Under the pieces are notes generated by a model. That model was not told where the DNA came from. It worked only from the letters and a program-made list of their open reading frames with translations, and did not search any database. Source: Escherichia virus TH42. Taken from it: a stretch of 64,000 bases of DNA. The translations under genes were made by a program, and so were the position numbers. The stretch is from the sequence record MT446413.1. One strand, written 5' to 3'. Shown in pieces: positions 22,300-52,737 of the stretch (positions are counted from its first letter, which is position 1; each line of letters starts with the position of its first letter).

Positions 22300-22605
22300 T
22301 TAACCTTTGAGCGCATCCTCTGTTTCCTCATTCTGGCGTTTAATTTCTTCAGTGAGTTGCTTATTGAGATCTTGAATACGCTTAATCTCCCAACCCAAAG
22401 AAGCCAAACGATCATTACGTGCTTCAATTTGCTCCTGCATCTTAACCAATTTGGAACGAACATCAGCATTAAAGACTTCCTCTTGCTTAAGAAGGAACTC
22501 ATAACGACGCTTCCAGCTTGCTGACTTATTACTTAAAGCAATAAATCCCAGAGTAGAAATCGTTACAGTGAGTACGAGAAGGAACTTATAAACCTCTAAA
22601 GACAT
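22300..22605 (-). CDS. i-spanin-like membrane protein (N-terminal TM helix plus coiled coil)
   Basis: 101 aa; FLLVLTVTISTLGFIAL then heptad-rich charged segment; adjacent to cell-wall hydrolase gene. Confidence 0.4.
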   Translation of the reverse strand: MSLEVYKFLLVLTVTISTLGFIALSNKSASWKRRYEFLLKQEEVFNADVRSKLVKMQEQIEARNDRLASLGWEIKRIQDLNKQLTEEIKRQNEETEDALKG

Positions 22606-22668
22606 ATCTTTATCCTCTTAAAGTAAGATATTATAAGAAATATTATTTAGAATTTATTATTTCTAAAC

Positions 22669-23193
22669 TTAATTTCTATCAATAATTTTCAGAGGTCTAT
22701 ATACAGTCATTACCTCTGGTTCCGAATCACTACCACTTTTTGCAGAGAAAATCATAAGTAGGTGATTTATAAGGGAATTTAGTTTGTCAATCTTGGCACC
22801 TATGAACCAGTCACGGGCACTATTATTGAACACTAAATCACCACAATACATTGGATTGGTATACCACTTTGGCACCCCTTCGCTCTTACTCTGAAAGTAT
22901 GTACCGCTATACAAAGGCACATAGCTTTTCTTCAGTGCACGTCTTGCAAGCTGCTCGCTCTCCCTGATTGACTTCTTTGTCAGAGGATTATCATCACGAA
23001 TTAGCTTTACATAACGTTTAAAAGGCTTCTCCTTCTTTAATAAGACGGGTATCCACTCGAACTGGTTTCGTTGTTTTATAACCTGCTCGGCAGTCAGTTT
23101 TCGTTGTGACATTCTGTTTATTACGGTATCCGCTACTAATGCTTTGCAAGCGGTTGGCTGATTCCCTGCCTCATAATAAATAGTCAATGTCAA
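22669..23193 (-). CDS. SleB-type cell-wall hydrolase (candidate endolysin)
   Basis: 174 aa, TTG start; motifs ALVADTVINRMSQ, NQFEW, PLYSGTYF resemble Hydrolase_2 (SleB) family. Confidence 0.55.
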   Translation of the reverse strand: MTLTIYYEAGNQPTACKALVADTVINRMSQRKLTAEQVIKQRNQFEWIPVLLKKEKPFKRYVKLIRDDNPLTKKSIRESEQLARRALKKSYVPLYSGTYFQSKSEGVPKWYTNPMYCGDLVFNNSARDWFIGAKIDKLNSLINHLLMIFSAKSGSDSEPEVMTVYRPLKIIDRN

Positions 23194-23244
23194 AAGTAGC
23201 TGGGCTGTCGTTATCAGAACTTACTACCCCCTTGTTTTACGGGC

Positions 23245-23272
23245 ATAAAAAAGCCCCATCCGAAGACGGGGC
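23245..23272 (-). terminator. intrinsic terminator (minus strand)
   Basis: Minus-strand GCCCCGUC-UUCG-GAUGGGGC then UUUUUUAU; two weaker hairpin+U-run structures at ~23327-23350 and ~23432-23452. Confidence 0.5.
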
Positions 23273-23475
23273 GACCTGAAAAGTGAACATGACCTCACTC
23301 GTTTAAGAACCCTCTCAAAGACTCTTAAAAAAGCGGCCTCATTAGAGGCCCGGTCAAATGACCATCCAATAGGGATTGAACCATGCCAATGATTCACAAA
23401 GGGCTTTCCCTTTAGGCATCACTAGCTACGCAAAAAGCCGCACAAAGGCGGCAGGCACAAAGACGCCCTAGAAGA

Positions 23476-23522
23476 GCGTCATAGTAGTTGACTACAGGTG
23501 TAGAGAAGAGGCTTACTTTACT
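23476..23522. repeat. ~45-nt direct repeat, copy 2
   Basis: GCGTCATAGTAG identical 12-mer plus AGAGAAGAGGCTTACTTTACT; overlaps stop codon of 23513..23956. Confidence 0.45.
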
Positions 23523-23956
23523 CTCGCTTCCTTGATAGGGTCTATGTATTTTTCGACTCCCCATTTATGCTGACTATCAGCGTAGAAAACATCCGGTGCA
23601 CATTGGCTGGTAGTAGGGAAAGCTTTCGGTGGCTTAGTGCTACCTTTATTCTTCTGCTTACCCTTAGTGCGGCCGTTACAATAGATTTCTAAACGTTTCT
23701 CTTCTTCTGTTTTCGCTGCACCGTTGGTTAACAAGGAACGTTTATGATCAGCAAGAAGAAGTGCATCAGCACGGTGAACACGACGCCCTAACACCTTTGC
23801 TACGGTAGACGGTTTATGTTCTTGAGCGGCTTGTTTGATAGCTCTACGTTTAAGGCTACGTTTGCTAACGTGGTTAGTAGCGACTGGCTTATCTTTTTCC
23901 AGTTCACTCATCGAGAACACACGCCCGCCTTTCATGCTGATTTTAGATTTAGCCAT
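23513..23956 (-). CDS. basic hypothetical protein
   Basis: 147 aa; Lys/Arg-rich, possible nucleic-acid binding; no motif recognised. Confidence 0.4.
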   Translation of the reverse strand: MAKSKISMKGGRVFSMSELEKDKPVATNHVSKRSLKRRAIKQAAQEHKPSTVAKVLGRRVHRADALLLADHKRSLLTNGAAKTEEEKRLEIYCNGRTKGKQKNKGSTKPPKAFPTTSQCAPDVFYADSQHKWGVEKYIDPIKEARVK

Positions 23957-24026
23957 TGCTTTATTCCTTTCGCTGATAAATTATATCGTGCAAGCCTTAC
24001 CACATAGCAAGGCTTAACCAAATAAC

Positions 24027-24236
24027 TTAATCAATCAAACTAAACGACTTCCAGCTACGCGTAATTGCTACCCGTTCGCCATCAAAGAGAACACTTACAG
24101 AGATTAGCTTACCGCGACAACTGGATACCGTGGTAATACGTCCGGTTAGTGCCTTACCTTTATTCAGATAGTGATAGCGGACACGACGCCCTAGTAGTCG
24201 AGTAGCTTTCTTCTCTAATGTGCTTAAGCTGGTCAT
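24027..24236 (-). CDS. hypothetical protein
   Basis: 69 aa ORF. Confidence 0.35.
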   Translation of the reverse strand: MTSLSTLEKKATRLLGRRVRYHYLNKGKALTGRITTVSSCRGKLISVSVLFDGERVAITRSWKSFSLID

Positions 24237-24457
24237 TAAACAACCTCTTTATATTGGAGTGATCTTACACGACGATACATTACAGAAGATGCATTAATCG
24301 CCGCTTGTTTTCTTTCGTGCTCATGCTGGTTTTTGTGTATCTTATCCATCTCGGCATCATTACGACGACGCTGTAAGATTCTGCTACACTTGCGATGGTT
24401 ATTGTTAGCACGTGCTTTCTTACAGATAGGGCACAAGTGAGATTGAGTTAAGATCAT
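24236..24457 (-). CDS. hypothetical protein with CxxC pair
   Basis: 73 aa; LCPICKK...HRKC. Confidence 0.35.
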   Translation of the reverse strand: MILTQSHLCPICKKARANNNHRKCSRILQRRRNDAEMDKIHKNQHEHERKQAAINASSVMYRRVRSLQYKEVV

Positions 24458-24678
24458 TTTCGCAGTCCTAACTTACGAAGGAATCGGCCTAGCTTAGTTT
24501 CCTGCGTGATAGTGTAAGTAACAGAGTTTTCAATTAATGCTTGTTCTTGAATCGGTGACGGATACCATTCACCGGTAAGGATGCATTTACACTCGATTCC
24601 ATACTTATCGGTTTTACGATAGGTCATGTTGTTTAAGATATTACGATACATCTTAACTTCTGTTTTCAATTTTGGCAT
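24454..24678 (-). CDS. hypothetical protein
   Basis: 74 aa ORF. Confidence 0.35.
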   Translation of the reverse strand: MPKLKTEVKMYRNILNNMTYRKTDKYGIECKCILTGEWYPSPIQEQALIENSVTYTITQETKLGRFLRKLGLRK

Positions 24679-24732
24679 GGTGTTTATCTCTTTTTAGTTT
24701 CTTTGATTAGTACACTGAATCAATGCACTAGT

Positions 24733-24766
24733 AAAAGAAAAGGCGCTACCCTTTCGAATAGCGCCT
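24733..24766 (-). terminator. intrinsic terminator (minus strand) after 24787..25689
   Basis: Minus-strand AGGCGCUA-loop-UAGCGCCU followed by UUUCUUUUAC. Confidence 0.45.
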
Positions 24767-24786
24767 TATATGTTCTTTATTGTAGG

Positions 24787-25689
24787 TTATGCAGCTTGTT
24801 GGCGTGCTGCCATGATCTCGGCAGCTTTACGCAATACTTCTTCCTCGTCTGCCGCCGCTTTCTCGTTCGCTTTGACAGTAGAAGCTGTAGAGATACGACC
24901 GCGAAGGTTAGACAATTTTTCAGTCATTTCGTTGATCGCTTTTTCCATTTCATCAGCGTATGAGTCCAGCGATTCAAGCTCTTTAACTGAGGCATTGATC
25001 AGATAGTCATCGCTGATAGATACAGTTGATGCGGTTACTTTCTTAAGGAGTGAATCAAAAGTTTTCTTAACTTTGCCTACTTCTTCACTCAATGCGATAG
25101 TGTTATCAGAAGATGCACCGTTGCGCTCGTCTGCCAACAAGGCCGCTTCAATACGGATGGCAGCTAAACGATCAGTTAGAGCGTAAATATCCTGATTAAA
25201 GTTTTCGTTAACCTTCTGGTTAATCTGATTTGCTACCGGAACGTTGTCGTTGCAGCCTTTATAGAAAGCTGGATTATCGACCTGTACATCTTCACCTTTA
25301 GCAAAGCGTTCGAAGGAGTTAGACCAGCGGGCACGGTTTTGCTCCATTTTGGTTTTAACCTGTTCCGGTTTAGCATCTTCTTTCGCTTTCGCTTCACCTT
25401 CCAGATTAATCCATTTCTTTTTACCGTTCGCCCCGTCGCTGTTGTACTTGATAGGAGTGAGGAAAGAGATTGCAACCGCAATCACATCTAAATCACGGTA
25501 ACGCTCAGTCAGTAAGAAATCTACCGCCCCCTGCAATACATCCAGCTTCTTACCGTTAGCACGGAAGTGCTGCAAATGACCTAACAGGAAGTTAGAAACA
25601 TCTTGCTTAATCGCTGCGTTGTTGCTACGGATATTGTTAGCCAGTGCGTTAAAGCCAGATTCGTTAACCAGATTGAAAGATTTAGCCAT
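24787..25689 (-). CDS. hypothetical protein (first gene of leftward block)
   Basis: 300 aa ORF with AAGG SD; Ala/Lys/Glu-rich, probably helical; terminator hairpin immediately downstream. Confidence 0.5.
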   Translation of the reverse strand: MAKSFNLVNESGFNALANNIRSNNAAIKQDVSNFLLGHLQHFRANGKKLDVLQGAVDFLLTERYRDLDVIAVAISFLTPIKYNSDGANGKKKWINLEGEAKAKEDAKPEQVKTKMEQNRARWSNSFERFAKGEDVQVDNPAFYKGCNDNVPVANQINQKVNENFNQDIYALTDRLAAIRIEAALLADERNGASSDNTIALSEEVGKVKKTFDSLLKKVTASTVSISDDYLINASVKELESLDSYADEMEKAINEMTEKLSNLRGRISTASTVKANEKAAADEEEVLRKAAEIMAARQQAA

Positions 25690-26594
25690 GATAATTTACC
25701 TTTTAATTAAAACGCTCTATGCGCCGCTCTCTATGAGCTATTCAAGTCACAATGACTTAACACTAATCACTAACTATTAGTAACCAGTGGTAAATCAGGC
25801 GGACTTATCAGGAGTTAACCTTGCCGCCTAACTTTCCATGATGTTTCATCCGGTGGATTCTATTAATCGCTATAAACGAAGCCGATTTGCCAGCGATGAT
25901 TAATCATCATAATAAGGCAGTGTGCCCATCTCTAATTAGCTAACGTTCTAGCCGATGGTAATGCTGTTTACTTTACGTTCGCTCCGCGATACCCTTTTAT
26001 ATTAACTCTCTAAGCCGACTTATCACCTACTACGGGAAAGTATATGGCAAAGAGTCACTAACCGCCTGATAGATTGGCGTTTGATTATCTCTCTCGCGAT
26101 TTACTACAGTGCATTGTTATGTACTCACATCTTATTGACGTGTTTCAAACAACTTGCTTAGTAAACACTCACACTTAAACCTTATTATTAAATAGCAATT
26201 TGCTACTCTTTAACCTTCACACCGTCGCTCGCTATTGAGCGTTAATTCGTCGGGATTGACTACCCTGATTAACGTCTATTACCGTAGCACTTTACTAGCA
26301 CCGCCGCCGCTACCCTTTAACCGTAGGTGATTAGCTTAAGCCTTGCATGTACTCGATAACTTCGTTTATCAGTGGCATCGTTTCCAGTAAGGGAATGTAA
26401 AGCGGTTTTCTCTGATATTTTAGAGCGCCTTACATCGTTTTATCTGGCATAACTTGCAATGGTTATTATTGCTCGTTATGTTCAACCGATATAGGAAGAA
26501 GTTTAAATTGTTAAAGAGCGGTAAATCTATCGAAGTGCTTTCTCACTTCCCGCCACCGTTCGCCGTGGTTTCGCGTTTCACTAGTTGCCTAGTG

Positions 26595-26645
26595 AGTGCT
26601 CATTATGAATCATCCCGTTTAGCGTGTCAACCACTTTTTTTAAAT
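26595..26645 (-). promoter_or_regulatory. sigma70-type promoter (leftward)
   Basis: On minus strand: A-tract, -35 TTGACA (26625-26630), 17-bp spacer, -10 CATAAT (26602-26607). Confidence 0.45.
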
Positions 26646-26897
26646 CTTTTTCTCGTCTATTCTTTCGAATGACCAGTTAATCACACATTGGATTAACAAG
26701 ATTGTAAGCGGTTGCGCTTAACTTTCTGATTCATATTTTTAAAGAGCGGTGCGGTTTTCATGACTCCGCAAACATTTTCATTTTGAAGTCTACTTATGCA
26801 CTAACGGGGCGACTACACCCGACCTACACGCTGCACTATGTGCCACCTTTCCCGCGCTACGTCACTTAGGGGAACTGTTTAGCAAGTTGCCTTGCTT

Positions 26898-26947
26898 AGT
26901 GAACATTCTAACAGAGTGTTTCACCTTGTCAACTCTTTTTATCATCT
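26898..26947 (-). promoter_or_regulatory. sigma70-type promoter (leftward)
   Basis: On minus strand: A-rich upstream, -35 TTGACA (26927-26932), 16-bp spacer, -10 TAGAAT (26905-26910). Confidence 0.45.
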
Positions 26948-27129
26948 TCTTTTATTCTATTCCCTTATCTCGCGTGAATCTTTGCGAAAGGGCAAGATGA
27001 TAATTTGTTAAAGAGCGTTAAATCTGTCGCCGTCTTCCTCGGCTTCGTGCCTTGAGTGTTCCCACTCCTTCCAGTTTAAGCCTTTTTACATGATGCTAAT
27101 CATCTATCTGGAAGTGTTCTGTACTGCTG

Positions 27130-27180
27130 AGATCACATCTTATCATAGTGATTCGACGTGTCAACAACTATTTTTCGATT
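27130..27180 (-). promoter_or_regulatory. sigma70-type promoter (leftward, weaker -10)
   Basis: On minus strand: -35 TTGACA (27159-27164), 16-bp spacer, -10 TAAGAT (27137-27142). Confidence 0.35.
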
Positions 27181-27225
27181 AATGCATCTTGATAAACTAG
27201 CGACCATTGAGGCCGCTAACCTACC

Positions 27226-27465
27226 TTAGTTCATACGTTTAAAGGTTAAATCTTTATCCGTACTTACCAGCGATAACACCGCGATAGATTTGCCATTGTC
27301 GGCATCAGCTATCATTTCTTTCGCTTGCTGTAACGTGCTACCGACTATTCTCATAATCATGTTAGTAACGTTAATGCTAGTGCAAGTGATTTGCGTGTCT
27401 TTGCTTGAGAAGGTGTAAATGTTCATGGATAAATCCTCATTATGGCATGGTTGGGAGTTTATCAA
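27226..27465 (-). CDS. hypothetical protein
   Basis: 79 aa ORF, TTG start. Confidence 0.35.
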   Translation of the reverse strand: MINSQPCHNEDLSMNIYTFSSKDTQITCTSINVTNMIMRIVGSTLQQAKEMIADADNGKSIAVLSLVSTDKDLTFKRMN

Positions 27466-27928
27466 GATACACTAATCGAATTTTTAAAGAGCTAGTAAAC
27501 AAAGTTTGCCTTGAGAGAATCTAGTACACTGTTAAACGCTGATTTCTTTGAAGTATCGACCTTATAGGCCGCCAAATCCACGCATGAAAGAGGAATCGAC
27601 TAGGATAATCAACTAAGTGCCTTATAGTAATGACGCTTGTTAGCACCACTCCTAAGCAAACCTTGTTTTTAAAGAGCAAGGCTAAAAGTCTAGCCTATCA
27701 GGCTTGTTACCGACTGCATAACTAAACCTGAGATTCAAATATAAATCTATCAAGCAAAGAAAGCAATACCTTTTTCTAAAATAATTTCACTTTCTTTTAG
27801 GTATAGATGAGCACGCGCACGAATAACATCAGGGGAGGAAGAAAACAAGCCTTATAATCGAAAATAAGGCATACAGGAGGCGTTCTAACGAGCTAAACAG
27901 GGGCAAGATGTGCAATCACCTTAGAAAT

Positions 27929-27953
27929 GAAAAAAGCGCCTCAAAAGGGCGCT
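27929..27953 (-). terminator. intrinsic terminator (minus strand) after 27974..28315
   Basis: Minus-strand AGCGCC-CUUUUGA-GGCGCU then UUUUUUCAUUU. Confidence 0.5.
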
Positions 27954-27973
27954 TAGGAAGTCTTACGGGTTGG

Positions 27974-28315
27974 TTACGGATTGGTGCAAGTGCCGTTACC
28001 GGATGATATTTCGTTCATCGACTCATCGAACAACGTCATACTAGACCGCATCATGTGATCAATAGTAATTTGTTTGCCTGTAGCTTCGTTAACAAGCATC
28101 GCATATTTGCTATCAACAACCTTGTTGTCGTAGTCATTCAGGTCAATCAATACTACCTTGCTGGACTTCTTGCCAGTGTCGTAATTTTCCATAAGGTAGG
28201 TACATTGCAGGCCATCGAGATTAGCCTCATTGAATACGGCAGCATAAGACACGGAAGAAACAGCGAACAAGGCAGCACATACAGCTAATTTAATTTTCAT
28301 AATCCAATCCTCCAA
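27974..28315 (-). CDS. secreted/periplasmic small protein
   Basis: 113 aa; signal-peptide-like MKIKLAVCAALFAVSSVSYAAVF (internal ATG probable start); terminator downstream. Confidence 0.45.
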   Translation of the reverse strand: MEDWIMKIKLAVCAALFAVSSVSYAAVFNEANLDGLQCTYLMENYDTGKKSSKVVLIDLNDYDNKVVDSKYAMLVNEATGKQITIDHMMRSSMTLFDESMNEISSGNGTCTNP

Positions 28316-28427
28316 TACGATTGGGGCAATCCTTAAAAAGAACGTGCAACATAAGAAATCATGTCATAGGTAAATAACATGATACAGAAAGCAATCAGGC
28401 AATGCAAAAAGTATTTATGAATCACCA

Positions 28428-39561: not shown

Positions 39562-40308
39562 ATGGCAATGCCTGAAGTTCAGTATCCTATCAATACCTAT
39601 GGCTGGCTTAAAAAGGCTGTGTCACTCTGGGCCGATAGGGATGATGGTGAATTTGTAGATCAAATTCCAAACTTTATTAACTTTGCAGAGAAAGAAATCT
39701 ATCGTAACTTACGAATCCCTCCTCTGGAAAAAGAAGTATATTTAGATATCAAGGATGGTATTGCTTTTATCCCTCCTGACTTTTTAGAAGCACAGTGGAT
39801 TATGAGAGCTTCAAATGGAATGATGTTCAGAGTAACCTCTCCTGAAGAACTTGACTGGTTGAAGAGAAATAACTCAGTCAACCCATCCAATTGGAATCAA
39901 GGGGAAGTTGTTTTTGCTCGTTTAGGTAGTCGGTTTATGTTCTACCCTCTAATTGATGCAGATACTCCTGTTTATCCTGATGATGGAGCACCTGAAATCC
40001 CTGCTGAGAATGCTGTAGTTTTAAGTTATTATGCAGACCCACCGGAGTTCCACTCTGATGAAGATACCAGTGCTATTCTAACTATTGCTCCTGAGCTGCT
40101 TCTATATTTTACTCTGCGTCATGCTTCTTTATTCGTTCAAGATGATAATGGAGTTCAAAAGTGGTCAGCACTTGGTAAAGCAATCCTTGACGAGATTGTG
40201 GAGCAGAGTAAGAAAGCAGAATACTCAGGTTCCCCTCTAGTAATCCCTAATACTATTAGCCGTCTTAATAGCTCACGAGAAGTGTACGGCATTCGTAGAT
40301 ACAGATAA
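39562..40308 (+). CDS. virion structural protein (head-tail joining or tail tube candidate)
   Basis: 248 aa ORF between capsid and tail fibre genes. Confidence 0.45.
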   Translation: MAMPEVQYPINTYGWLKKAVSLWADRDDGEFVDQIPNFINFAEKEIYRNLRIPPLEKEVYLDIKDGIAFIPPDFLEAQWIMRASNGMMFRVTSPEELDWLKRNNSVNPSNWNQGEVVFARLGSRFMFYPLIDADTPVYPDDGAPEIPAENAVVLSYYADPPEFHSDEDTSAILTIAPELLLYFTLRHASLFVQDDNGVQKWSALGKAILDEIVEQSKKAEYSGSPLVIPNTISRLNSSREVYGIRRYR

Positions 40309-40317
40309 GGAGAACAT

Positions 40318-42951: not shown

Positions 42952-42996
42952 AACTAAGAATGCCCTCTCTTCAGAGGGCTTTATGGAGGATTATAA

Positions 42997-45174: not shown

Positions 45175-45180
45175 AGGACT

Positions 45181-45198
45181 GCCCCTTCGGGGGCTTTT
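45181..45198 (+). terminator. intrinsic terminator after tail fibre gene
   Basis: GCCCC-UUCG-GGGGC then UUUU. Confidence 0.55.
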
Positions 45199-45267
45199 AG
45201 AAGTTAAATTAGTGAATAGGTAATGAAACTAATATATCTAAAAGGATAAACACATAGGAGAAAGAAG

Positions 45268-45486
45268 ATGAAATTAATGAAACAAATCACATATGGACTG
45301 GCTTGCTTAGGTACCGGTTTTGTAGTATCTACAGCAATCCCTGTTAGTGCTGTCAGCTCCCATTCAGTTATTGAAGCTCCAGTAGAAAAACTTAGCGCTG
45401 AATGTAAGCAAAGAACTATCCAGAATAATCTCGTAGTTATTTGTCCAGATGCCCAATCTTCAGCGTTGAGAAAAGTTCTACCTTGA
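45268..45486 (+). CDS. small secreted/membrane protein
   Basis: 72 aa; N-terminal hydrophobic segment ITYGLACLGTGFVVSTAIPVSAV; directly upstream of lysozyme. Confidence 0.4.
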   Translation: MKLMKQITYGLACLGTGFVVSTAIPVSAVSSHSVIEAPVEKLSAECKQRTIQNNLVVICPDAQSSALRKVLP

Positions 45487-45514
45487 TACAATAATAAAAA
45501 TAGAGGAGGTCAAG

Positions 45515-46006
45515 ATGGACGCTATCGCATTGCCACCTGTACAGCATAATTTAAGTCCTGAGGGTTTGGAGTTCATTATGAAGCATGAAGGTATGAGAAC
45601 CCGTGCTTATCAAGACTCCGCTGGCATATGGACTATATGTGTCGGAGCAACGCGCGATATGAATGGGTATCCAGTCAGAAAAGGATTAACGTATTCTATA
45701 GAGGATTGTTTGATATTACTAGATCGTGACACTCAAGACTCTGTTCGTGCTACTCAGAAAAATATAAGGGTTCCTTTGTTTACTAATGAGTTTGATGCTT
45801 TAACCTCTTTCAACTTTAATGTTGGTGGTACAGCTCTCGCTACTTCTAAACTAAGGAAAGTGATCAACGGAGATGTTAGAGGTGATGTTTACTCTGAGTT
45901 TTTGCGTTGGGATAAAATAACAGTCAGAGGTGTAAAACAACAGAGTCCGGGACTTCACAACCGAAGGGTTGCAGAAGCAGACCTATACACCACAGGTAAA
46001 TACTAA
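45515..46006 (+). CDS. T4-type lysozyme (GH24)
   Basis: 163 aa; catalytic region EGMRTRAYQDSAGIWTICVGAT. Confidence 0.75.
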   Translation: MDAIALPPVQHNLSPEGLEFIMKHEGMRTRAYQDSAGIWTICVGATRDMNGYPVRKGLTYSIEDCLILLDRDTQDSVRATQKNIRVPLFTNEFDALTSFNFNVGGTALATSKLRKVINGDVRGDVYSEFLRWDKITVRGVKQQSPGLHNRRVAEADLYTTGKY

Positions 46007-46018
46007 TGGAGGTGCCTT

Positions 46019-46822
46019 TTGGCTATTGAAACTACAGCGGTAGTAACTACCGATTTAAACCCCCTGTACCCTCGTGACAGGGATTATATTTATGAAGGGG
46101 CGGCTCAACTCCGCCTTATCAAACAAGTCTTGATTAACACATTCCCTAACATCACTGAACCAGTGAACCTTTCTTCTGAATCCTTTAAGGCTTTGTCAGA
46201 GAAAATCACTTTTACTGGTGATGCTATGGATGTTGGTAATCTGATGATTAAAAACCTGACTCCGGGCACTGGTGATAAAGATGCTGTAACCAAAGGTCAG
46301 ATGGAAGCTTTCATGTTGAATTGGATGCAGAATAAACTATATCGTATTGGTGCTTACTACATCACTGAAGAAGATATTAACCCCGGTGATTCTAGCTCTC
46401 TCGGCTTTGGCTCTTGGGCTAAAGTTACTGGTGTTGTTATGGGTACTGGTGTTGTCAACCCCGATGGGTCTGTTCCTAACGCCCAACGTGTTGAGTTCCA
46501 AGCAGGCGGTACAGGTGGTCGTGTGTTTAATACAGTTCGTACTGAGAATATGCCTCTAACTACAATCAATGGTTCTAGTTTCCAAGTTAGCTCCTACTCT
46601 CACGCACACAACATTACGATGGGCCGAGGGGATGCTAGTGGTCATAACAGCAGCCCTAACTGGTATAGTCCGGGTGGTGGTTATACTCAAGTAACTGACA
46701 CAAACACTCACTCACACTCAATCTCAGGTTCTGTTAGTTTTGGTTATGATGACATTTCTCGTCAACCTATCAACACATTACCGCCATTCCGAGCAGCACA
46801 TATTTGGAGACGTATTAGCTAA
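46019..46822 (+). CDS. tail protein (fibre/baseplate-like)
   Basis: 267 aa; GDKDAVTKGQM motif common in tail-fibre N-termini; Gly/Ser-rich C-terminus. Confidence 0.5.
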   Translation: MAIETTAVVTTDLNPLYPRDRDYIYEGAAQLRLIKQVLINTFPNITEPVNLSSESFKALSEKITFTGDAMDVGNLMIKNLTPGTGDKDAVTKGQMEAFMLNWMQNKLYRIGAYYITEEDINPGDSSSLGFGSWAKVTGVVMGTGVVNPDGSVPNAQRVEFQAGGTGGRVFNTVRTENMPLTTINGSSFQVSSYSHAHNITMGRGDASGHNSSPNWYSPGGGYTQVTDTNTHSHSISGSVSFGYDDISRQPINTLPPFRAAHIWRRIS

Positions 46823-46831
46823 GGAGGTAGC

Positions 46832-49800
46832 ATGGCTCTCTATCCAATTAAATCACTAGGCGCAGTTGGGGTTATCGCTGACCAAGCACCTACTGACTTA
46901 GCACCAAATGCTTTCACTAACGCTATTAATGCTCGGTTTGTTGAGCAGAGGGTCTTTAAGACGGGGGGCAATGCCCCTCTTTCTTATGTAGACGAAGATA
47001 AAGATCTGACTCCTCTCTCATTCCTTTCAATGCCTTTCGACTATTATAGCGCAGGTAATAGCTTTCTTGTGGTAGGTACAGATAAGAAACTGTATAAACT
47101 TACCGACGAGAGTTTAACTGATATCAGCCGTAAGGTTGCTACAGCGACAAAGAAAGCATCAGCGACAATTAAGATTTATCCAGTAGTCTCAAATATTGTT
47201 CCTAAAGAGACTTCTGTATCTATGAATTTTAACCAGACCAAGATTCTCGAAGTTGAAGTCACCCCTACAGATGCTCAAAATGCTAATCTAGTTTGGGAAG
47301 TAAGCAACTCTTCTTACGGCAGTATTGAAGTTGACCCTACTGACTCCAAGAAGGCTACCCTAACTTCTAAGTCTGTTGAAGGTAATTTAGTTGTGACAGT
47401 GAGCACATCTGATGAATCTATCTCAGCTCAGATTGCAGTTAATATCATTGATGGTGATTCAGGTATCTATTTGAGCCAAGACACTTTGACTATGCGTAAA
47501 GGTGGTACATCAACCCTTACAGCAATTACAGGCAAACCGTCTGTAACTTGGTCTTCCTCTAACCCATCGTTAGTTTCTGTTTCTCCTAATGCTAATACAA
47601 AGACAGTTGTTCTTACAGCTCTTGGAGAAGGACAGGTAACTATAACTGCTGATAATGAGACAAAGACTGCATCTTGTATAGTAACAGCAATACCTCAAAT
47701 TGATAGCATCACATTAAGTCAGACAGATATTCAAATGAGCCGTGGTACTCAGTACATCCTAACTGCAACAGTTAGTCCAGCTAACGCACCCAACCAAACA
47801 ATCACTTGGACTTCTTCTAATACCAACATTGCTACAGTAAGTGGTACAGGTACAGAAGCTACAATAACTGGATTGCTTGCAGGGTATACAGAGATTACAG
47901 CAGTTACAGCGGAAGGAGGTCGTTCAGCAGTTTGTACTGTACGTGTTGATTTATCTTCTCGTCTGGCAAGTAGGGCTATGTCAGCAATGACTATCACTAC
48001 AGAAGCTCCTGTAGAAGAACCAATGGTTGGCTCAGAAGAGGTAACATACTTCGACACTGATAACATTGGTATTGATACGACAGGAATGGCAGAAGGGAAT
48101 AACTTCTACGACTACTCTAACGTCATGGACTTGGAAGGTTTTGGTAGAGCAGCAATGCTTGCTAATGATCCACCTTTGACTGGAGTTACTCTTGATGTTA
48201 TTGATGCCTCTCTTGATGTAGGTGAAGAGATTGTTATCACAGCTACAGCATCTCCTACTGGAAGCTATACTTACAAGTGGACAGTTGATAAGAGTGGTTA
48301 TGTTTCTACTACTTCTACAACTGACTCAACTTTGAAACTTACTGCTATTCGTAAGGGTGAGGTTAAAGTGACTTGTACTGTAAGCCAGATGGTTCAGAAA
48401 GACTATGATGCGTTTGAAGATTATCCTTGGTATCATGCGATCATCTCTAACTGTGCAGTAGCAACTACTCACTACGAAACTCCTCAGGTTAAGGAATTCG
48501 ATTCTGAATACTTCACTGATCTTCCGGGATGGGGTGAGCAGACGGTTGTTGATGCAGATGGTAATCCTTCTGTTAAGAAGTATAACTGGAAATGTGAACG
48601 AGTGAGAGCTTTTAACAATAGACTGTTTGCTCTGAATATGAGAGAGTCTAATGCCTCTGGTGTTACTACTCACTACCCTCTTCGTTTGCGTTGGTCTAAC
48701 TTTGCAGAGGAAAACAAAGCCCCTCAGCTTTGGGATGATTATGCATATGACCGAGCAGTGAGTTCTGACCTAGCAGCTAACATCGTAGGACAGACAGAAG
48801 CTCTTGAGAATGGTTATGCAGGATATATTGATTTGGCTGACTCTAATGGTAGTTTGTTAGATGTTCTTCCTCTGAAAGATTATCTGTTCGTTTACACTGA
48901 GTTTGAAACTTATATCGGCTCTCCTACCAACAACACCTATCAGCCTTTGATGTTTAAAAAGCTGTTTAACGATTCAGGAATACTTGCTCCTGAGTGTGTG
49001 GTGGAAGTTGAAGGTGGTCACTTTGTGGTAACTCAGAACGACGTCATTCTACACAATGGTGCTTCTAAGAAATCTATTGCTTCTAACCGAGTGAAGAACA
49101 TGCTCATTAATGAGATTTGTCTGGTGAACCCAATTGCTACACGAGTTCATCTTCATCAGGATAAGAAAGAAGTATGGGTTCTTTATGTAGGTCCGGGTGA
49201 GCCTAAGGAAAGTTTTGCCTGTACTAAAGCAGCAGTATGGAATTATGAGTTCGACACTTGGTCTTTCCGTACGATTCCTTATTCTTATTGTATCGGTCTT
49301 GTTGATCCTCCGGTTCTGGAACGCGGTCCTATCTGGGCTGATTTCCAAGAGATCACTTGGGATGACCCTTCGATTGACAAACTGGTGTGGAGAAAAGATG
49401 CAACTAACTTCCGTCAGCGAGTTACAATCATAGGTTCTTTCTTGAAAGGATTCTACCAAGTTGATATAGGAGCTTTGGATTATATCTATGACAGAACAAA
49501 CGATGTGGTTATAGAGAAGCCTCTGGAAATGAGACTAGAGAGAACGGGGATTGATTTTGATAACGTCACTAATGAATGGAATCAGAAACACATTAACCGA
49601 TTTAGACCTCAAGTAACAGGAACGGGGACTTATACTTTTGAAGCAGGTGGTAGTCAATTCTCTAATGAGTATGGACACAACCACTCTACTAAAGAGTTTA
49701 GGGTTGGTGTGGATCGTCACGTAGCAGTCAGACTGAACCATCCATACCTATTCTATAATGTTATAGATAATGATGTTAACAGTAATGCGTCTATGAATGG

Positions 49801-49837
49801 TTTAACCATAGAGTTTGCTGTTGGCGGTCGAAGATAA
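46832..49837 (+). CDS. large virion protein with several Ig-like (Big_2-type) domains
   Basis: 1001 aa; repeated ~80-aa Ig-like units in N-terminal 400 aa (e.g. GQVTITADNETKTASCIVT, YTEITAVTAEGGRSAVCTVRV); terminator follows. Confidence 0.55.
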   Translation: MALYPIKSLGAVGVIADQAPTDLAPNAFTNAINARFVEQRVFKTGGNAPLSYVDEDKDLTPLSFLSMPFDYYSAGNSFLVVGTDKKLYKLTDESLTDISRKVATATKKASATIKIYPVVSNIVPKETSVSMNFNQTKILEVEVTPTDAQNANLVWEVSNSSYGSIEVDPTDSKKATLTSKSVEGNLVVTVSTSDESISAQIAVNIIDGDSGIYLSQDTLTMRKGGTSTLTAITGKPSVTWSSSNPSLVSVSPNANTKTVVLTALGEGQVTITADNETKTASCIVTAIPQIDSITLSQTDIQMSRGTQYILTATVSPANAPNQTITWTSSNTNIATVSGTGTEATITGLLAGYTEITAVTAEGGRSAVCTVRVDLSSRLASRAMSAMTITTEAPVEEPMVGSEEVTYFDTDNIGIDTTGMAEGNNFYDYSNVMDLEGFGRAAMLANDPPLTGVTLDVIDASLDVGEEIVITATASPTGSYTYKWTVDKSGYVSTTSTTDSTLKLTAIRKGEVKVTCTVSQMVQKDYDAFEDYPWYHAIISNCAVATTHYETPQVKEFDSEYFTDLPGWGEQTVVDADGNPSVKKYNWKCERVRAFNNRLFALNMRESNASGVTTHYPLRLRWSNFAEENKAPQLWDDYAYDRAVSSDLAANIVGQTEALENGYAGYIDLADSNGSLLDVLPLKDYLFVYTEFETYIGSPTNNTYQPLMFKKLFNDSGILAPECVVEVEGGHFVVTQNDVILHNGASKKSIASNRVKNMLINEICLVNPIATRVHLHQDKKEVWVLYVGPGEPKESFACTKAAVWNYEFDTWSFRTIPYSYCIGLVDPPVLERGPIWADFQEITWDDPSIDKLVWRKDATNFRQRVTIIGSFLKGFYQVDIGALDYIYDRTNDVVIEKPLEMRLERTGIDFDNVTNEWNQKHINRFRPQVTGTGTYTFEAGGSQFSNEYGHNHSTKEFRVGVDRHVAVRLNHPYLFYNVIDNDVNSNASMNGLTIEFAVGGRR

Positions 49838-49843
49838 CAACTA

Positions 49844-49866
49844 GGGAGCTTCGGCTCCCTTTTATT
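49844..49866 (+). terminator. intrinsic terminator after 1001-aa gene
   Basis: GGGAGC-UUCG-GCUCCC then UUUUAUU. Confidence 0.55.
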
Positions 49867-49874
49867 GTTTATAA

Positions 49875-50897
49875 TTGGAGGTACTTATGGGTGCTGGAGG
49901 TTTTCGTAAGAATACTGGAAGAAACAACACCACACTTCCCTACAACGTTGGGTTTTTAAACAATGTAGAGGATACGGATAAATATAACGTTGCAGTTTAT
50001 GATGAATTGCAGAAAGTCAGTACAGCAACTAACCAGATGTTCCAAGCAATCGACGAGATTCATGAAGAAATAGATGTTCGTATTAAAGCTCTTAATGCAA
50101 TGAACCTACAGTTTGATGAACTTGAGAACCGAATTACTACAGAGATTGAAACAGCTATTGCTGATATTCAAACACAGATGGGTAATCTTTCTACTGAAGA
50201 CATTTGGGATAGAAGCACTAACCCTCCGACTAAACTGGATGGTACAGTTGCAGGTTTCAAAACTTCTATTGAAGGTAATGATTTAAAGATTCAGACAGTA
50301 CAAGGTATTGTGAATGAACAAGGACAAGAGATTGCTTTAGTTCAGACAGAACTTACTGCTCAAGGTACTCAGATTGCTGAAGTGGATGGTAAGGTTACTA
50401 CTGTACAGAATTCTCTTTCTCAATACATGAGACTAGATAGTTACGAAGCTACATGGGGTGTCAACTCTTCTATTAATGGTCAGTACGCTGGTGTTAAACT
50501 AACTAACAACGGCACGAACAGCCAATTCCAAGTAACGGCTAATAAATTTATTGTTGGTGATGGCAACTCTGGTAATACTCCTTTTGTTTTTGAAGGTGGT
50601 AGAGCTAGAATGGAATTCGCTGATATCAAGAATGTCAACATTACAACTGCTCAGATTGCTAATGCTCGAATCCAATTTGCTCAGATTGATAACGTATGGA
50701 TTCAAGATGGACAGATTGCTAACCTTACTGCTAACAAGATTACTGCTGGCTCTATGAGTGGTTCAAACTGGAGACTTACTGTTGGCGGGGATTTTGTGAT
50801 GGGTGGTACAGGCGGTTCTCAGTTGTGGATGAACGGTAATAGAATAGATTTTTATGATGGGAGTGGAACTCTTCGTATAAGAATAGGGAGTTGGTAA
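49875..50897 (+). CDS. tail fibre-like protein
   Basis: 340 aa; N-terminal coiled coil then repeat-like IANARIQFAQIDNVWIQDGQIANL. Confidence 0.45.
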   Translation: MEVLMGAGGFRKNTGRNNTTLPYNVGFLNNVEDTDKYNVAVYDELQKVSTATNQMFQAIDEIHEEIDVRIKALNAMNLQFDELENRITTEIETAIADIQTQMGNLSTEDIWDRSTNPPTKLDGTVAGFKTSIEGNDLKIQTVQGIVNEQGQEIALVQTELTAQGTQIAEVDGKVTTVQNSLSQYMRLDSYEATWGVNSSINGQYAGVKLTNNGTNSQFQVTANKFIVGDGNSGNTPFVFEGGRARMEFADIKNVNITTAQIANARIQFAQIDNVWIQDGQIANLTANKITAGSMSGSNWRLTVGGDFVMGGTGGSQLWMNGNRIDFYDGSGTLRIRIGSW

Positions 50898-50898
50898 T

Positions 50899-51933
50899 AT
50901 GGCATATGGAATATGGACAAGCCCTGTTGGTCCGGGTCCGGCGGCACCTGCTGATATTTACATCGATAGTGGTAGCACGTTTCCTCAACTCAAGAATAGA
51001 GTTAGCGGTAACTTTGCATTTAGTGGAAACATTTGTGACCTCCCTATAAACGGGTGGGATGGAAGTGGTCAAATAGTTATTGTCCCAACAGGCTCTGTGG
51101 TATGGGAAAGATACATACCGCCTAATGTGACCTCGGACGTATACTGGATAGACAACATCTCAGTTATTAATAACTCTACTTTTCGAGTTACTATGGATTA
51201 TAATGTTAATGGGTGGGTATTTGATATGGCTTTTAATGTGTATCAGATATGGCCTAGAGCTAATAGAAACTACGGAATTACTTTTTCTAACACAGCTGAT
51301 TACTTCTCTATTTCTGACTCTGGCACTGTTGGTCAGTGTATCTGGGCTTGGGAAGGTGACATAAACGGCTCTCTTCAGATACCAGATATTGGAGGTTTTG
51401 ATATGAGCCGGGCAACTGTTTATGCAAACTGGAGTCACGGAGGGGCGGGGTTGTTGTATAACCCATCTAACAGGGTTGTTTATGTGTACCAAAACAGGTC
51501 TCACGATAACAGTAACACAAACCAAACAGGATCTATTGGTGGTGTTAGGATTGCTGTTTTCTGCGATGGTTCTGGGGTACCAACCCACAACGGTGGCCTA
51601 AACATCTTTTCCCCAAATGGGTCTCAGTGCGTATTCTCTACCTATAGAACCCCTTTTAGTGTTGAAGGGTTTATGCCTATGAGTGGAGGTAATACATCTC
51701 TGGCCTATCCAATGATACCACTGTCTTATGGGGCTGGGGCTATACGAGGAAGTGCTAGTGGTTGGTACTTTCAACACACAAGATCTCATATGATGAATGG
51801 ATCTTCTTTTGGGACAGGGTATGGAAGAATGATATACTCTTGGTCAAATCAGTATGATCTCGGTGGTGGGGGTGCTCTAGGATTAAGTATTCCGGTATTA
51901 GACGCCAAGAAGATTTTTAGAAGCATACAATAA
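50899..51933 (+). CDS. virion structural protein
   Basis: 344 aa ORF, start adjacent to upstream stop. Confidence 0.45.
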   Translation: MAYGIWTSPVGPGPAAPADIYIDSGSTFPQLKNRVSGNFAFSGNICDLPINGWDGSGQIVIVPTGSVVWERYIPPNVTSDVYWIDNISVINNSTFRVTMDYNVNGWVFDMAFNVYQIWPRANRNYGITFSNTADYFSISDSGTVGQCIWAWEGDINGSLQIPDIGGFDMSRATVYANWSHGGAGLLYNPSNRVVYVYQNRSHDNSNTNQTGSIGGVRIAVFCDGSGVPTHNGGLNIFSPNGSQCVFSTYRTPFSVEGFMPMSGGNTSLAYPMIPLSYGAGAIRGSASGWYFQHTRSHMMNGSSFGTGYGRMIYSWSNQYDLGGGGALGLSIPVLDAKKIFRSIQ

Positions 51934-51942
51934 GGAGAGGAT

Positions 51943-52737
51943 ATGGATAGGATTTTAGGAGTTTCAGAACTAGATCCACTGGTTCAACAAGCTGCTAAGA
52001 AGTATGGTATTCCTGCTGCTCTTGTTCATGCGGTCATTCAGAGGGAGTCTAGTGGTAAGCCCTCTGCCGCTTCAGGAACAGGGCCAGTAGGATTGATGCA
52101 GATTAGTAAAGGTTTGGCTAAAGATTATGGTTACAAATTAGAAGATCGTCTAGACCCAGCTAAGAATATCGACATGGGTGCTAGATATATCAGGGACAAC
52201 CTAAAAGCGTTTAATGGTGATGTAAGAAAGGCAATGGTAGGTTATTCAGAAGGGACTGGTGGAGCAAAACAAATGTTCGCTGGTAAGAGAGGGTTTACAC
52301 CTCAAGCTCTCGATTCTATGAATAATAAAAACTTCCTCCCTTTCTATACAGCCAATGATGCTGCTGGTCAGGTAGCTAATCCGGTTGGGGCTTTACAGTC
52401 AGCACAGCCAGTGAACCAGTTCTCTCCTGAATTGGTTACTAAAGAAGGTGCTGCTAATTCCCCTACTCAAGCTGAGATTGCTGCTGCTAAGACAGGTGCT
52501 CTAGGTGGTTCTCCTGCTGAGTTCTATTCCGATGCTGTAGCAGAGACTGGGGAAGATCAGAAACCACAACAGAACTTCGGTAATGCTGCACTAGCTGCTG
52601 CTGCGATGTTAGCAGGGAAGGCTCCTAAGTCTCAAACAGTTCAGAGAGCACATGCACCAACTCAAGCAGGTTCTCAATACAGCCCACAGACACAAGCCGT
52701 TCTTAGACGTTTGGCAAGTGTTGGTGTTATTAAATAA
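51943..52737 (+). CDS. lytic transglycosylase (SLT domain) virion protein
   Basis: 264 aa; AALVHAVIQRESSGKP...GPVGLMQIS motif. Confidence 0.7.
   Translation: MDRILGVSELDPLVQQAAKKYGIPAALVHAVIQRESSGKPSAASGTGPVGLMQISKGLAKDYGYKLEDRLDPAKNIDMGARYIRDNLKAFNGDVRKAMVGYSEGTGGAKQMFAGKRGFTPQALDSMNNKNFLPFYTANDAAGQVANPVGALQSAQPVNQFSPELVTKEGAANSPTQAEIAAAKTGALGGSPAEFYSDAVAETGEDQKPQQNFGNAALAAAAMLAGKAPKSQTVQRAHAPTQAGSQYSPQTQAVLRRLASVGVIK

Follow-up and report, generated by a model that had tools for sequence, protein, structure and literature searches.

Wall enzymes of a phiEco32/SU10-like phage: a putative holin-endolysin cassette, a probable ejection transglycosylase and a conserved SleB-like protein

The window, i.e., the whole 64-kb stretch of DNA analyzed here (Escherichia virus TH42, MT446413.1), comes from a phiEco32/SU10-like podophage (Gordonclarkvirinae) whose nearest relatives are Bas88, TH43, TH34 and ECBP2. 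An initial annotation had assigned three muralytic enzymes to the SleB, GH24 and SLT families, and had proposed that one is the endolysin and the others are virion associated. In a Pfam search with curated thresholds, all three family calls passed, the SleB call being borne out by the predicted fold as well. The late region carries the following features:

45181..45198, plus strand: GC-rich hairpin GCCCC-TTCG-GGGGC followed by TTTT (direct reading)
45268..45486, plus strand: putative class III holin, 72 aa, one transmembrane domain (TMD) (phrog_11161, hydropathy, annotation of relatives)
45515..46006, plus strand: soluble GH24 (T4/P22-type) endolysin, 163 aa (Pfam, homology, SU10 proteomics)
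51943..52737, plus strand: probable ejection protein with an N-terminal SLT lytic transglycosylase domain, 264 aa (Pfam, 7EYB match, SU10 gp20)
52750-53799, 53811-54782, 54797-56428 and 56494-60912, plus strand: four further predicted ejection-protein genes (syntenic with SU10 gp21-24)

The SLT protein matched its Pfam family with an E value of 4.9e-25. The domain covers approximately residues 8 to 125 (E35-S36, GLMQ), the C-terminal half is rich in Ala and Gln, and the protein also matched the transglycosylase domain of T7 gp16 in 7EYB (E value of 1.8e-9). It shares 83% identity with SU10 gp20, which has been proven to be in the virion and is lost upon genome release. SU10 proteomics scored the gp20 transglycosylase and gp21-24 as present in the virion and the gp14 holin, the gp15 lysin and gp19 as absent, and gp20-24 are missing from genome-release intermediates. 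An independent mass-spectrometry survey of SU10 from 2014 found gp20-24 and detected neither gp14, gp15 nor the SleB homologue, absence from such lists not being proof of absence from the virion for a low-copy 15-kDa protein. Because of this identity, and in view of the synteny, we infer that the SLT protein is a virion-carried ejection enzyme, as shown in SU10. The four genes that follow are syntenic with those for SU10 gp21-24, sequence identity having been measured for the first two, and none of their products harbors a muralytic domain. The SLT protein resembles T7 gp16, which has an N-terminal SLT domain, is packaged in the head and is ejected to the periplasm. However, in gp16 this domain is fused to a channel-forming protein of 1318 aa, whereas here it makes up a separate 264-aa protein and the large ejection proteins have genes of their own farther downstream.

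Upstream of the GH24 gene, the initial annotation had pointed to a small protein with a hydrophobic N terminus and had concluded that no canonical holin was present. Hydropathy analysis confirmed a single hydrophobic segment at residues 11 to 29 (TMD at approximately 7 to 29), and the charge distribution predicts an N-in/C-out topology. This 72-aa protein is, in fact, the annotated holin of the family: it matched phrog_11161, labeled "holin" (E value of 5e-39), and its homologues are annotated as holin in Bas88, ECBP2, SU10 and phiEco32 and as "holin class III" in Paul. The family was found in 98 records, and its alignment revealed that the C-terminal domain is conserved and that two cysteines in it are invariant. 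The protein had no match in Pfam or NCBIfam and resembles none of the curated holin families in sequence; SU10 gp14, to which it is 72% identical, was not detected in the virion. Based on its position, size and single TMD, we consider it a putative holin. It shares one TMD and the N-in/C-out topology with the class III holin T of T4, but it has only 72 aa compared to 218 aa for T. Alternatively, the hydrophobic segment could represent a long signal peptide (VSA|VS).

The GH24 protein matched the Phage_lysozyme family with an E value of 1.8e-30. The triad E25-x8-D34-x5-T40 can be read in its sequence, and hydropathy analysis revealed no transmembrane, SAR or signal segment. Its best solved relatives are the endolysins 8APP and 7M5I, and relatives occur in 1947 phage records, annotated as endolysin in most of them. 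The gene has its own Shine-Dalgarno sequence. Because the putative holin gene lies directly upstream and because the homologue SU10 gp15 (86.5% identical) went undetected in SU10 virions in two studies, we infer that this lysozyme is the endolysin, in line with the original proposal that one of the three enzymes would be, and that it forms with the 72-aa protein a holin-endolysin cassette (45268-46006). It is scarcely conceivable that it is instead a tail-associated enzyme and that lysis relies on something else. The gene does sit between the distal long-fiber and the short-fiber genes, but the products of all its neighbors were detected in SU10 virions, a holin gene and a Shine-Dalgarno sequence precede it, and it encodes a plain single domain, most closely related elsewhere to endolysins that adjoin holins or spanins.

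The cassette is common to all Gordonclarkvirinae records, but, as reported by the SU10 authors, the related phages 7-11 and GAP52 do not have the holin/lysozyme pair. Situated between tail-fiber genes, the cassette resembles an acquired module. The hairpin at 45181-45198, which is under the T-run threshold of our terminator scan, directly follows the distal long-tail-fiber gene and precedes the pair. As in P22 gp13/gp19 and T4 t/e, an E-x8-D-x5-T muramidase without SAR is immediately preceded by a small membrane protein. However, unlike in these systems, the spanin genes would be unlinked here, about 18 kb away and on the other strand.

Concerning these spanins, the initial annotation was right that no o-spanin is found within the 64-kb window. 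However, this is so because the window ends about 0.4 kb before the spanin pair, as predicted with the help of one synteny marker:

63336..63986, minus strand: phage sigma factor gene (100% identical to Bas88_0026)

The last 2 kb of the window are colinear with Bas88 (96.4%), where an overlapped Rz/Rz1-type spanin pair lies 377 to 724 nt past the point matching the window end; Bas88_0029 is annotated as "Rz-like spanin." Rz/Rz1-type spanins are also listed for ECBP2, phiEco32, KBNP1711 and NJ01 (Kongari et al. 2018). By colinearity, we thus place an accepted Rz/Rz1 pair about 0.4 kb past the right end. That a holin and an o-spanin seem to be lacking is a matter of annotation and of the window end rather than a property of the phage.

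The third enzyme lies in a leftward block, which workers on SU10 and phiEco32 class as early, together with the following features:

22300..22605, minus strand: early membrane protein, 101 aa, N-terminal TMD and coiled-coil-looking remainder (hydropathy, phrog_12154)
22669..22809, minus strand: read-through tail of the mechanical ORF, 46 codons (alignment with six relatives)
22810..23217, minus strand: SleB/CwlJ-type (Hydrolase_2) stand-alone catalytic domain, 136 aa (Pfam, AlphaFold, Foldseek, dN/dS)
23227..23231, minus strand: Shine-Dalgarno-like GGGGG (direct reading)
23253..23452, minus strand: three consecutive terminator-like hairpins (terminator scan)

The domain call made for the ORF at 22669-23193 (minus strand) stood, but its boundaries were off at both ends, the true span probably being 23217-22810 with a CTG start. 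At the 3' end, the ORF gained 46 codons because TGG (22807-22809) replaces, in this genome only, the stop codon present in all six aligned relatives: the window alone reads GACTGGTTC, and the others read GACTGATTC, GATTGATTC (SU7) or GAATAA (phiEco32). This tail crosses a conserved intergenic and promoter region. At the 5' end, the start is likely CTG 23217 and not TTG 23193. This CTG coincides with the start of homologues of 133 to 136 aa, and GGGGG lies 9 nt upstream of it (GGAGG in TH43, TH34 and phiEco32). Upstream of TTG 23193, no Shine-Dalgarno-like element could be read, and the eight preceding codons show a coding-type substitution pattern. The ATG of phiEco32 reads CTT in this genome, and annotators have given the gene 101, 128, 129 or 136 aa. 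The terminator scan returned four sites versus 1.4 expected; three of them (23452-23437, 23350-23335 and 23272-23253) are on the minus strand, where they separate the SleB-like gene from an early gene for a 147-aa protein, and the SU7 record has a terminator annotated at the syntenic place.

The Hydrolase_2/SleB score was marginal (30.9 bits versus a cutoff of 27), and SleB was not among the PDB sequences retrieved by a profile search. The AlphaFold model had a pLDDT of 89.6, and the only credible Foldseek matches in the PDB were the SleB catalytic domains 4FET and 4F55 (probability of 1.00, TM score of 0.59 to 0.65), the next match having an E value above 2. The marginal Pfam score and the predicted fold together point to the SleB family, and many stand-alone phage SleB-like proteins share this fold. 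The predicted fold matches the Bacillus SleB/CwlJ spore-cortex enzymes over the whole 136 aa, and, as in SleB, a conserved glutamate ends helix 1 in a Y-x-E-A-G motif. However, identity is only 17 to 18%, the phage protein has neither the signal peptide nor the N-terminal peptidoglycan-binding domain, and the muramic-lactam substrate is absent from the Gram-negative, nonsporulating host. The comparison with phiEco32 indicates strong purifying selection on the gene (dN/dS of 0.06, dS of 1.12). The putative catalytic Glu16 is invariant in 12 homologues and belongs to the 43 columns that do not vary among homologues with identities as low as 50%. All seven aligned genomes and about 120 records preserve an intact reading frame. 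By tblastn, the gene was found in 120 phage records, about 99 of them from E. coli, Shigella and unnamed hosts and the others from Proteus, Salmonella and Cronobacter, and the related Grimontviridae have it as well. It is a core gene of Gordonclarkvirinae and Grimontviridae irrespective of the main endolysin type; in Privateer, for instance, it coexists with a peptidase-type endolysin (Pfam PF13539 domain). Its homologue is annotated as "putative endolysin" in GAP52 and as "endolysin" in 7-11.

The 101-aa neighbor had been described as i-spanin-like. A TMD is indeed found at its N terminus, and after it comes a charged region, whose coiled-coil look was judged from the sequence and not by a prediction tool, and in this bare architecture it shares the N-terminal TMD and helical, charged remainder of lambda Rz/Rz1-type i-spanins. 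However, it lacks a partner lipoprotein, and its context is early rather than late or middle. A search for an embedded lipoprotein ORF, suggested along with the original description, found no lipobox or lipoprotein ORF inside or beside the gene. The protein shows no similarity to the ECBP2 i-spanin and diverges rapidly (42% identity to phi32_116); as the i-spanin of the family it was rejected on these grounds and for its early position. The SU7 annotation assigns the gene a promoter of its own, and its family, phrog_12154, carries the implausible label "DNA helicase." Judging from these comparisons, the neighbor is no spanin but an unrelated early membrane protein that evolves fast.

Overall, the wall enzymes very probably represent the standard phiEco32/SU10-like kit, with two moments of use and one conserved extra enzyme; virion content, timing and holin function would carry over from SU10 and phiEco32. 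At entry, the SLT protein, packaged in the head with the four other ejection proteins, would be expelled as the tail needle leaves and would cut the murein locally to let the ejection proteins bridge the periplasm, as for T7 gp16. At exit, the 72-aa protein would build up in the inner membrane and, once triggered, allow the GH24 muramidase, a soluble protein, to leave the cytoplasm, and the Rz/Rz1-type spanins would complete lysis. Because it has no export signal and its gene lies behind three terminator-like hairpins and probably has a weak CTG start, the SleB-like protein is likely made in small amounts and in the cytoplasm. Most likely, it is an accessory lysin that would reach the murein only after the holin has fired, which is the weakest step of our proposal; it may also have a different, nonlysis role.

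The functional reading of the initial annotation was thus two-thirds right, the part that did not hold being a virion with both SLT and SleB-like enzymes for wall penetration. The SLT half of this reading is correct, and SleB-type domains do occur in phage proteins of 660 to 1385 aa, the size of virion components. We nevertheless consider a virion role for the SleB-like protein very unlikely. It is a 15-kDa stand-alone domain without any tail- or head-targeting part, encoded far from any structural gene, and its homologue was missing from the proteins detected in purified SU10 virions and from those of a crude PEG preparation, although the latter included six early proteins. A decaying remnant is even harder to credit: the ATG turned into CTT, the stop lost in this genome only, the position behind terminators and the discordant annotated lengths would all fit decay, but they are outweighed by the purifying selection, the intact frames, the invariant columns including Glu16, the confident, well-folded model, the conserved Shine-Dalgarno sequence and the coding-type substitutions in the eight codons before TTG.

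We also regard as unlikely, though less so, that the SleB-like gene and its 101-aa neighbor form a second, ancestral lysis cassette to which the GH24 cassette was later and redundantly added. In such a cassette, the SleB-like protein would be the endolysin and the 101-aa protein a holin-like or i-spanin-like partner. This would fit the endolysin labels in GAP52 and 7-11, both without the holin/GH24 pair, the retention of the TMD/coiled-coil partner in a 70%-identical metagenomic lineage, a lipoprotein gene two genes downstream in GAP52 and the strong purifying selection. However, the two genes are separated by a conserved intergenic stretch of about 200 bp, in which SU7 has an annotated promoter. 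Unrelated genes replace the partner in a 48%-identical lineage, and in Privateer and GAP52 its place is taken by a protein without an evident TMD. The missing o-spanin ORF, the early position, the upstream terminators and the CTG start also argue against it. Finally, Privateer has its own endolysin, so in the sister group the role of "the" endolysin does not simply fall to the SleB-like gene.

The placement of the SleB-like gene has parallels: in PVP-SE1/BME3-type and several Salmonella phages, the main endolysin lies in one module and a second "SleB-domain cell wall hydrolase" in a regulatory/replication module, far from the holin, as here. These phages are, however, unrelated lineages, and the gene described here is in the early block, behind terminators and probably CTG initiated. 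Apart from the role of the SleB-like protein, the three-enzyme arrangement is not new, having been documented in this well-studied group of E. coli phages. From the distal tail fiber to the ejection proteins, the gene order is the same as in SU10 and phiEco32, and ordinary sequence divergence is the sole difference. The tail-region genes are closest to TH34 (98.6% for the holin and 99.4% for the lysin) and the early region is closest to Bas88, which by sequence comparison is routine mosaicism.

Three muralytic enzymes of different families, lying in separate modules, had been reported in the initial annotation, which took one of them as the endolysin and the other two as virion-associated enzymes for cell wall penetration. 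The observation itself is confirmed once the boundaries of the SleB-like gene are corrected, and the interpretation is two-thirds right: the GH24 endolysin and the SLT entry enzyme hold, whereas a virion location for the SleB-like protein is unsupported and the proposed spanin fails. The genes concerned are the following.

22300-22605 (-), 101-aa protein with one transmembrane segment, neighbor of the SleB-like gene
23217-22810 (-), SleB-like hydrolase, probable span (open reading frame originally listed as 22669-23193)
45268-45486 (+), 72-aa putative holin
45515-46006 (+), GH24 lysozyme
50899-51933 (+), 344-aa DUF6453 protein
51943-52737 (+), SLT-domain protein

Megablast searches with regions 40000-55000 and 21000-25000 returned about 100 Escherichia and Shigella phages belonging to the phiEco32/SU10 group (Gordonclarkvirinae); of these, Bas88, TH43, TH34 and ECBP2 are closest (88-95% nucleotide identity). 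Genes run colinearly with Bas88, ECBP2 and SU10 from the portal gene through to those for the ejection proteins, and the overall layout, a rightward late block at about 30.8-60.9 kb with leftward blocks on either side, is that of SU10. The arrangement of the enzymes is the documented standard of this group: published relatives carry annotations for a holin-lysin cassette between tail-fiber genes, an SLT ejection protein and a "SleB cell wall hydrolase," and for SU10 the composition of the virion has been determined. It is therefore already known and of low interest as a novelty. The value of our check is mainly corrective: a false spanin lead can be dropped, the "missing" holin and spanins are accounted for, and the SleB-like gene receives corrected boundaries.

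The assignment of the GH24 lysozyme was clear. It matched PF00959 with an E value of 1.8e-30 (106 bits against a curated Pfam cut-off of 22.3), its translation contains the catalytic triad E25-x8-D34-x5-T40, and it aligned end to end with the solved endolysins 8APP and 7M5I. The family has members in 1947 phage records, most of which annotate it as an endolysin beside holins or spanins. No 19-residue window of the protein, whose N terminus reads MDAIALPPVQHNLSPEG, reached the hydropathy threshold. An enzyme lacking a SAR or signal-anchor segment is of the soluble type and therefore depends on a hole-forming holin. Its SU10 counterpart, gp15, is 86.5% identical and, like the holin gp14, was marked as not in the virion in the SU10 virion study; gp14 and gp15 are also both missing from the independent mass spectrometry list of 2014. 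With a holin-family gene directly upstream and gp15 undetected in SU10 virions, the claim that one of the three enzymes is the endolysin holds for the GH24 lysozyme, by analogy with SU10.

That upstream gene is the small protein with a hydrophobic N terminus that had been noticed before the lysozyme, and we indeed found one hydrophobic segment in the 72-aa open reading frame, a single transmembrane domain at about residues 7 to 29, preceded by two lysines and followed by an acidic flank. The accompanying remark that no canonical holin was found has to be corrected, since this protein corresponds to the annotated holin of the relatives. It matched phrog_11161 ("holin"), its homologs are annotated as holin in Bas88, ECBP2, SU10 and phiEco32 and as "holin class III" in phage Paul, and it is 72% identical to SU10 gp14. 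The family was found only in 98 records, all of them Gordonclarkvirinae. In the alignment, conservation is highest in the C-terminal 35 residues, and two cysteines are invariant. Judging from the charges, the protein should adopt an N-in/C-out topology, in which the conserved C-terminal part should face the periplasm. Because the protein had no match to a curated family in Pfam or NCBIfam, and no experimental test of this family was found in the literature consulted, we infer the name, and regard the protein as a putative class III-like holin.

Only 28 nt separate the end of the holin-family gene from the GH24 gene, and a good Shine-Dalgarno sequence precedes both. With a GC-rich hairpin ahead of it, after the preceding tail-fiber gene, the pair has the appearance of a cassette of its own within the tail region. 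We also observed mosaicism here: over 45268-46006, the holin shares 98.6% and the lysin 99.4% identity with the TH34 proteins, against only about 72% and about 86% with the Bas88/ECBP2-type or Kuravirus-type copies. In contrast to this TH34-like pair, the early region (21000-25000) is closest to Bas88 (95%).

The SLT call also passed the curated Pfam threshold (PF01464, E value of 4.9e-25). The protein, which matches T7 gp16 in the transglycosylase region of the latter, contains the motifs QRE35-S36 (catalytic Glu-Ser), GLMQ and VGYSEG, and its C-terminal half is rich in alanine and glutamine. It is 83% identical to SU10 gp20 and lies at the corresponding place, ahead of the gp21-24 homologs. 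SU10 gp20-24 occur in virions and are lost from genome release intermediates, as SDS-PAGE and mass spectrometry showed for gp20, and the SU10 authors assigned to gp20 the peptidoglycan-degrading step of genome delivery; gp20 was also detected in the 2014 mass spectrometry survey. By homology, the SLT protein is probably carried in the particle and expelled together with the genome. The proposal that the remaining enzymes are virion associated and serve wall penetration is thus sustained for this gp20 homolog, while there is no evidence that the SleB-like protein belongs to the particle. Domain searches found no further muralytic domain in either the remaining ejection proteins or the gp19-like protein.

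Other features of this block were noted. Encoded after the tail needle gene and before the ejection genes, the 344-aa DUF6453 protein carries the PHROG labels "membrane protein" and "moron," yet it has no hydrophobic segment. It is 62% identical to SU10 gp19, which makes it the most divergent protein of the block, and gp19 was undetected in virions although all of its neighbors were detected. The late promoter core AATGTATA (phage sigma factor, gp36 type) has exact matches in the window only at 56450-56457 (+) and 266-273 (-), and none near the holin gene (about 45200) or near 23250. The first of these lies 37 nt upstream of the gene for a 1472-aa ejection protein, at the same place as the SU10 late promoter between CDS 23 and 24.

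For the SleB-like gene, the hydrolase call stood, but both ends of the listed open reading frame had to be corrected by alignment. Compared with six relatives, the stop codon is replaced by TGG in the window only, and the last 46 codons (22669-22809) cross a conserved intergenic region; this segment is, from the alignment, a read-through tail. At the other end, the phiEco32 ATG is CTT in the window, and no ribosome-binding site precedes the TTG at 23193. A CTG at 23217 lies nine nucleotides after a conserved GGAGG/GGGGG and immediately after two in-frame stops. Distant homologs (48-70% identity, 133-136 aa) begin with M-L-T-T-A-A-L-L-L-T-L-T exactly at this position, one of them with an ATG and a strong Shine-Dalgarno sequence and another with a TTG. 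Furthermore, changes in the eight extra codons between the CTG and the TTG are mostly synonymous, and these codons form the first half of helix 1 in the structural model. Taken together, the lost stop, the Shine-Dalgarno sequence, the homolog starts and the coding pattern upstream of the TTG indicate that the gene most likely spans 23217-22810 and encodes 136 aa from a CTG start. CUG is a weak start codon in E. coli.

The family call itself was upheld, if marginally: the listed open reading frame scored 30.9 bits with PF07486 (Hydrolase_2), for which the cut-off is 27 (E value of 4.5e-7), over HMM positions 2 to 85 of 100, and the same domain is precomputed for 14 of 17 homologs. An AlphaFold model built on 12 homologs reached a pLDDT of 89.6. 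Its first three Foldseek matches in the PDB were 4FET_A, 4FET_B and 4F55 (probability of 1.00, TM score of 0.59-0.65, 135 columns, full length); with the next match at an E value of 2.5, these SleB catalytic domains are the only credible ones. Among the predicted viral structures of BFVD, dozens of matches bear the name SleB cell wall hydrolase. In the PDB, sequence searches with the single protein or a 12-sequence profile gave no significant match, and the link to SleB therefore rests on Pfam and the predicted fold. Glu16 (CTG numbering), in the motif YYEAGNQ at the end of model helix 4-17, is invariant in 12 homologs down to 50% identity and is one of 43 invariant alignment columns. From the Pfam alignment and published SleB work, it is probably equivalent to the catalytic glutamate of SleB.

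Unlike SleB proper, which has a signal peptide and an N-terminal peptidoglycan-binding domain, the 136-aa protein consists of a single domain with neither. It resembles the catalytic domain alone, as in CwlJ, and we therefore file it in the Hydrolase_2 superfamily rather than as a SleB orthologue. No hydrophobic segment passed our scan for an export signal. A SAR or signal segment at the N terminus was considered and rejected, the hydrophobic stretch there being just 14 residues long and corresponding to helix 1 of the fold. The gene is under strong constraint (dN/dS of 0.06 at a dS of 1.12 compared to phiEco32), which rules out a pseudogene. Tblastn found it in 120 phage records, about 99 of them from E. 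coli, Shigella or unnamed hosts and the others Proteus, Salmonella and Cronobacter relatives, and a whole-library profile search returned 243 representative clusters, most of them of stand-alone proteins 115-160 aa long.

What this enzyme does was considered in the light of its context. Its block corresponds to SU10 CDS 69-125, assigned to the early class by homology to phiEco32 in the SU10 paper, and its homolog was undetected in both SU10 virion surveys. A scan identified three terminator-like hairpins directly upstream, and the SU7 annotators placed a terminator at the syntenic position. Neither a sigma-70 scan nor a search for the AATGTATA motif revealed a promoter between the hairpins and the gene. 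In phiEco32 (region 575-1372, compared with 23224-23513 [-] of the window), a 265-aa protein, phi32_119, is encoded after the terminators and ahead of the SleB-like gene; part of its interior resembles a signal peptide, and it contains collagen-like GxxGxx repeats. Phi32_119 is missing from the window and the aligned Suseptimavirus-type relatives, so that the SleB-like gene comes to lie directly behind the hairpins. Among more distant relatives, the homolog is the gene annotated as endolysin in GAP52 and 7-11, and in Privateer it is a "hydrolase" alongside a separate peptidase-type endolysin. A main endolysin combined with a distant SleB-domain hydrolase is a pattern that other authors have noted elsewhere.

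The protein is most likely an accessory lysin: a conserved cytoplasmic enzyme of low abundance, which would reach the wall only once the holin fires. A rather improbable alternative is that it is neither a lysis nor a virion enzyme and is instead an early protein deliberately expressed at a low level, CUG initiated and requiring terminator read-through, with a conserved job of its own. This job could be early wall remodeling, superinfection exclusion or moonlighting regulation like that of T7 lysozyme. If true, it would explain the strong purifying selection in Gordonclarkvirinae and Grimontviridae whichever endolysin is used, as well as the "second" SleB-domain hydrolase found off the lysis genes in many unrelated Gram-negative phages. 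The wider interest lies in why so many phages of Gram-negative hosts keep a small SleB-type hydrolase outside the lysis module. Because its virion is solved, its early, middle and late classes are known and its genetics are easy, this phage group is convenient for testing the role of the gene.

The 101-aa neighbor had been described as i-spanin-like. Its architecture agrees with this, with a transmembrane domain at residues 8-26 followed by a charged remainder that by eye looks heptad-like, suggestive of a coiled coil, but its identity as a spanin does not stand, since it shows no similarity to the accepted pair and has no partner lipoprotein open reading frame. Kongari et al. described an overlapped i-spanin/o-spanin pair, with sequences, for ECBP2, KBNP1711, NJ01 and phiEco32. 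The ECBP2 spanins (ECBP2_0034 and ECBP2_0033) gave only noise against the window in tblastn (E value of >2). A check for an embedded or adjacent o-spanin was negative, with no lipobox open reading frame in any frame of 22100-22700. In the six frames of the 64-kb window, under strict and relaxed rules, the only one of plausible length was 18616-18915, 3.4 kb from the 101-aa gene.

The absence of an o-spanin noted in the initial annotation is true of the window and is not a property of the phage, since the pair would lie just beyond its right end. The final gene (63336-63986) matches the Bas88 sigma factor with 100% identity, and colinearity with Bas88 (96.4%) extends over the final 2 kb. In Bas88, an "Rz-like spanin" follows at 377-724 nt past the window end, with an o-spanin (MRRLSQFFTMCALAMSMSAC...) in its +1 frame. 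The negative result was thus an edge effect.

The 101-aa protein is 42% identical to phi32_116 (dN/dS of 0.22). Its gene has its own promoter in the SU7 annotation, and in lineages further removed, unrelated genes take its place. The label "DNA helicase" (phrog_12154), carried in the Bas88 and phiEco32 records, is implausible for this transmembrane protein and looks like a propagated misannotation; NCBIfam added no name for this protein, the holin or the SleB-like protein. Lipoprotein genes were seen near the SleB-like gene in distant relatives. GAP52_089 (3106-3654 of the GAP52 region) combines an LLGC lipobox with a stretch rich in Gly and Ala close to its C terminus and is unimolecular-spanin-like, and on a metagenomic contig, a 92-aa lipoprotein open reading frame (3778-4056) overlaps the start of the SleB-like gene.

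Several minor observations concern the leftward blocks. About 2 kb (approximately 25700-27950) are almost without open reading frames on the transcribed strand and correspond to the spacer with three strong early sigma-70 promoters described by the SU10 authors. A tRNA at 19249-19327 (-) scored 36.4 bits in Rfam (gathering score of 29), while ARAGORN detected no tRNA in the window; a syntenic tRNA-Arg is annotated in Bas88 and SU7, and the 79-nt copy in the window may be altered. The open reading frame at 18616-18915 (-), in the early block, encodes a Cys-rich 99-aa protein of phrog_4281 (unknown function) with a lipoprotein-type signal (...CVALTG/C, Cys22), which may be an envelope or exclusion protein. 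Finally, 17084-17341 (-) and 18133-18399 (-) encode proteins of 85 and 88 aa without a PHROG family, each with two strong transmembrane segments, a holin-like architecture located in the early block.
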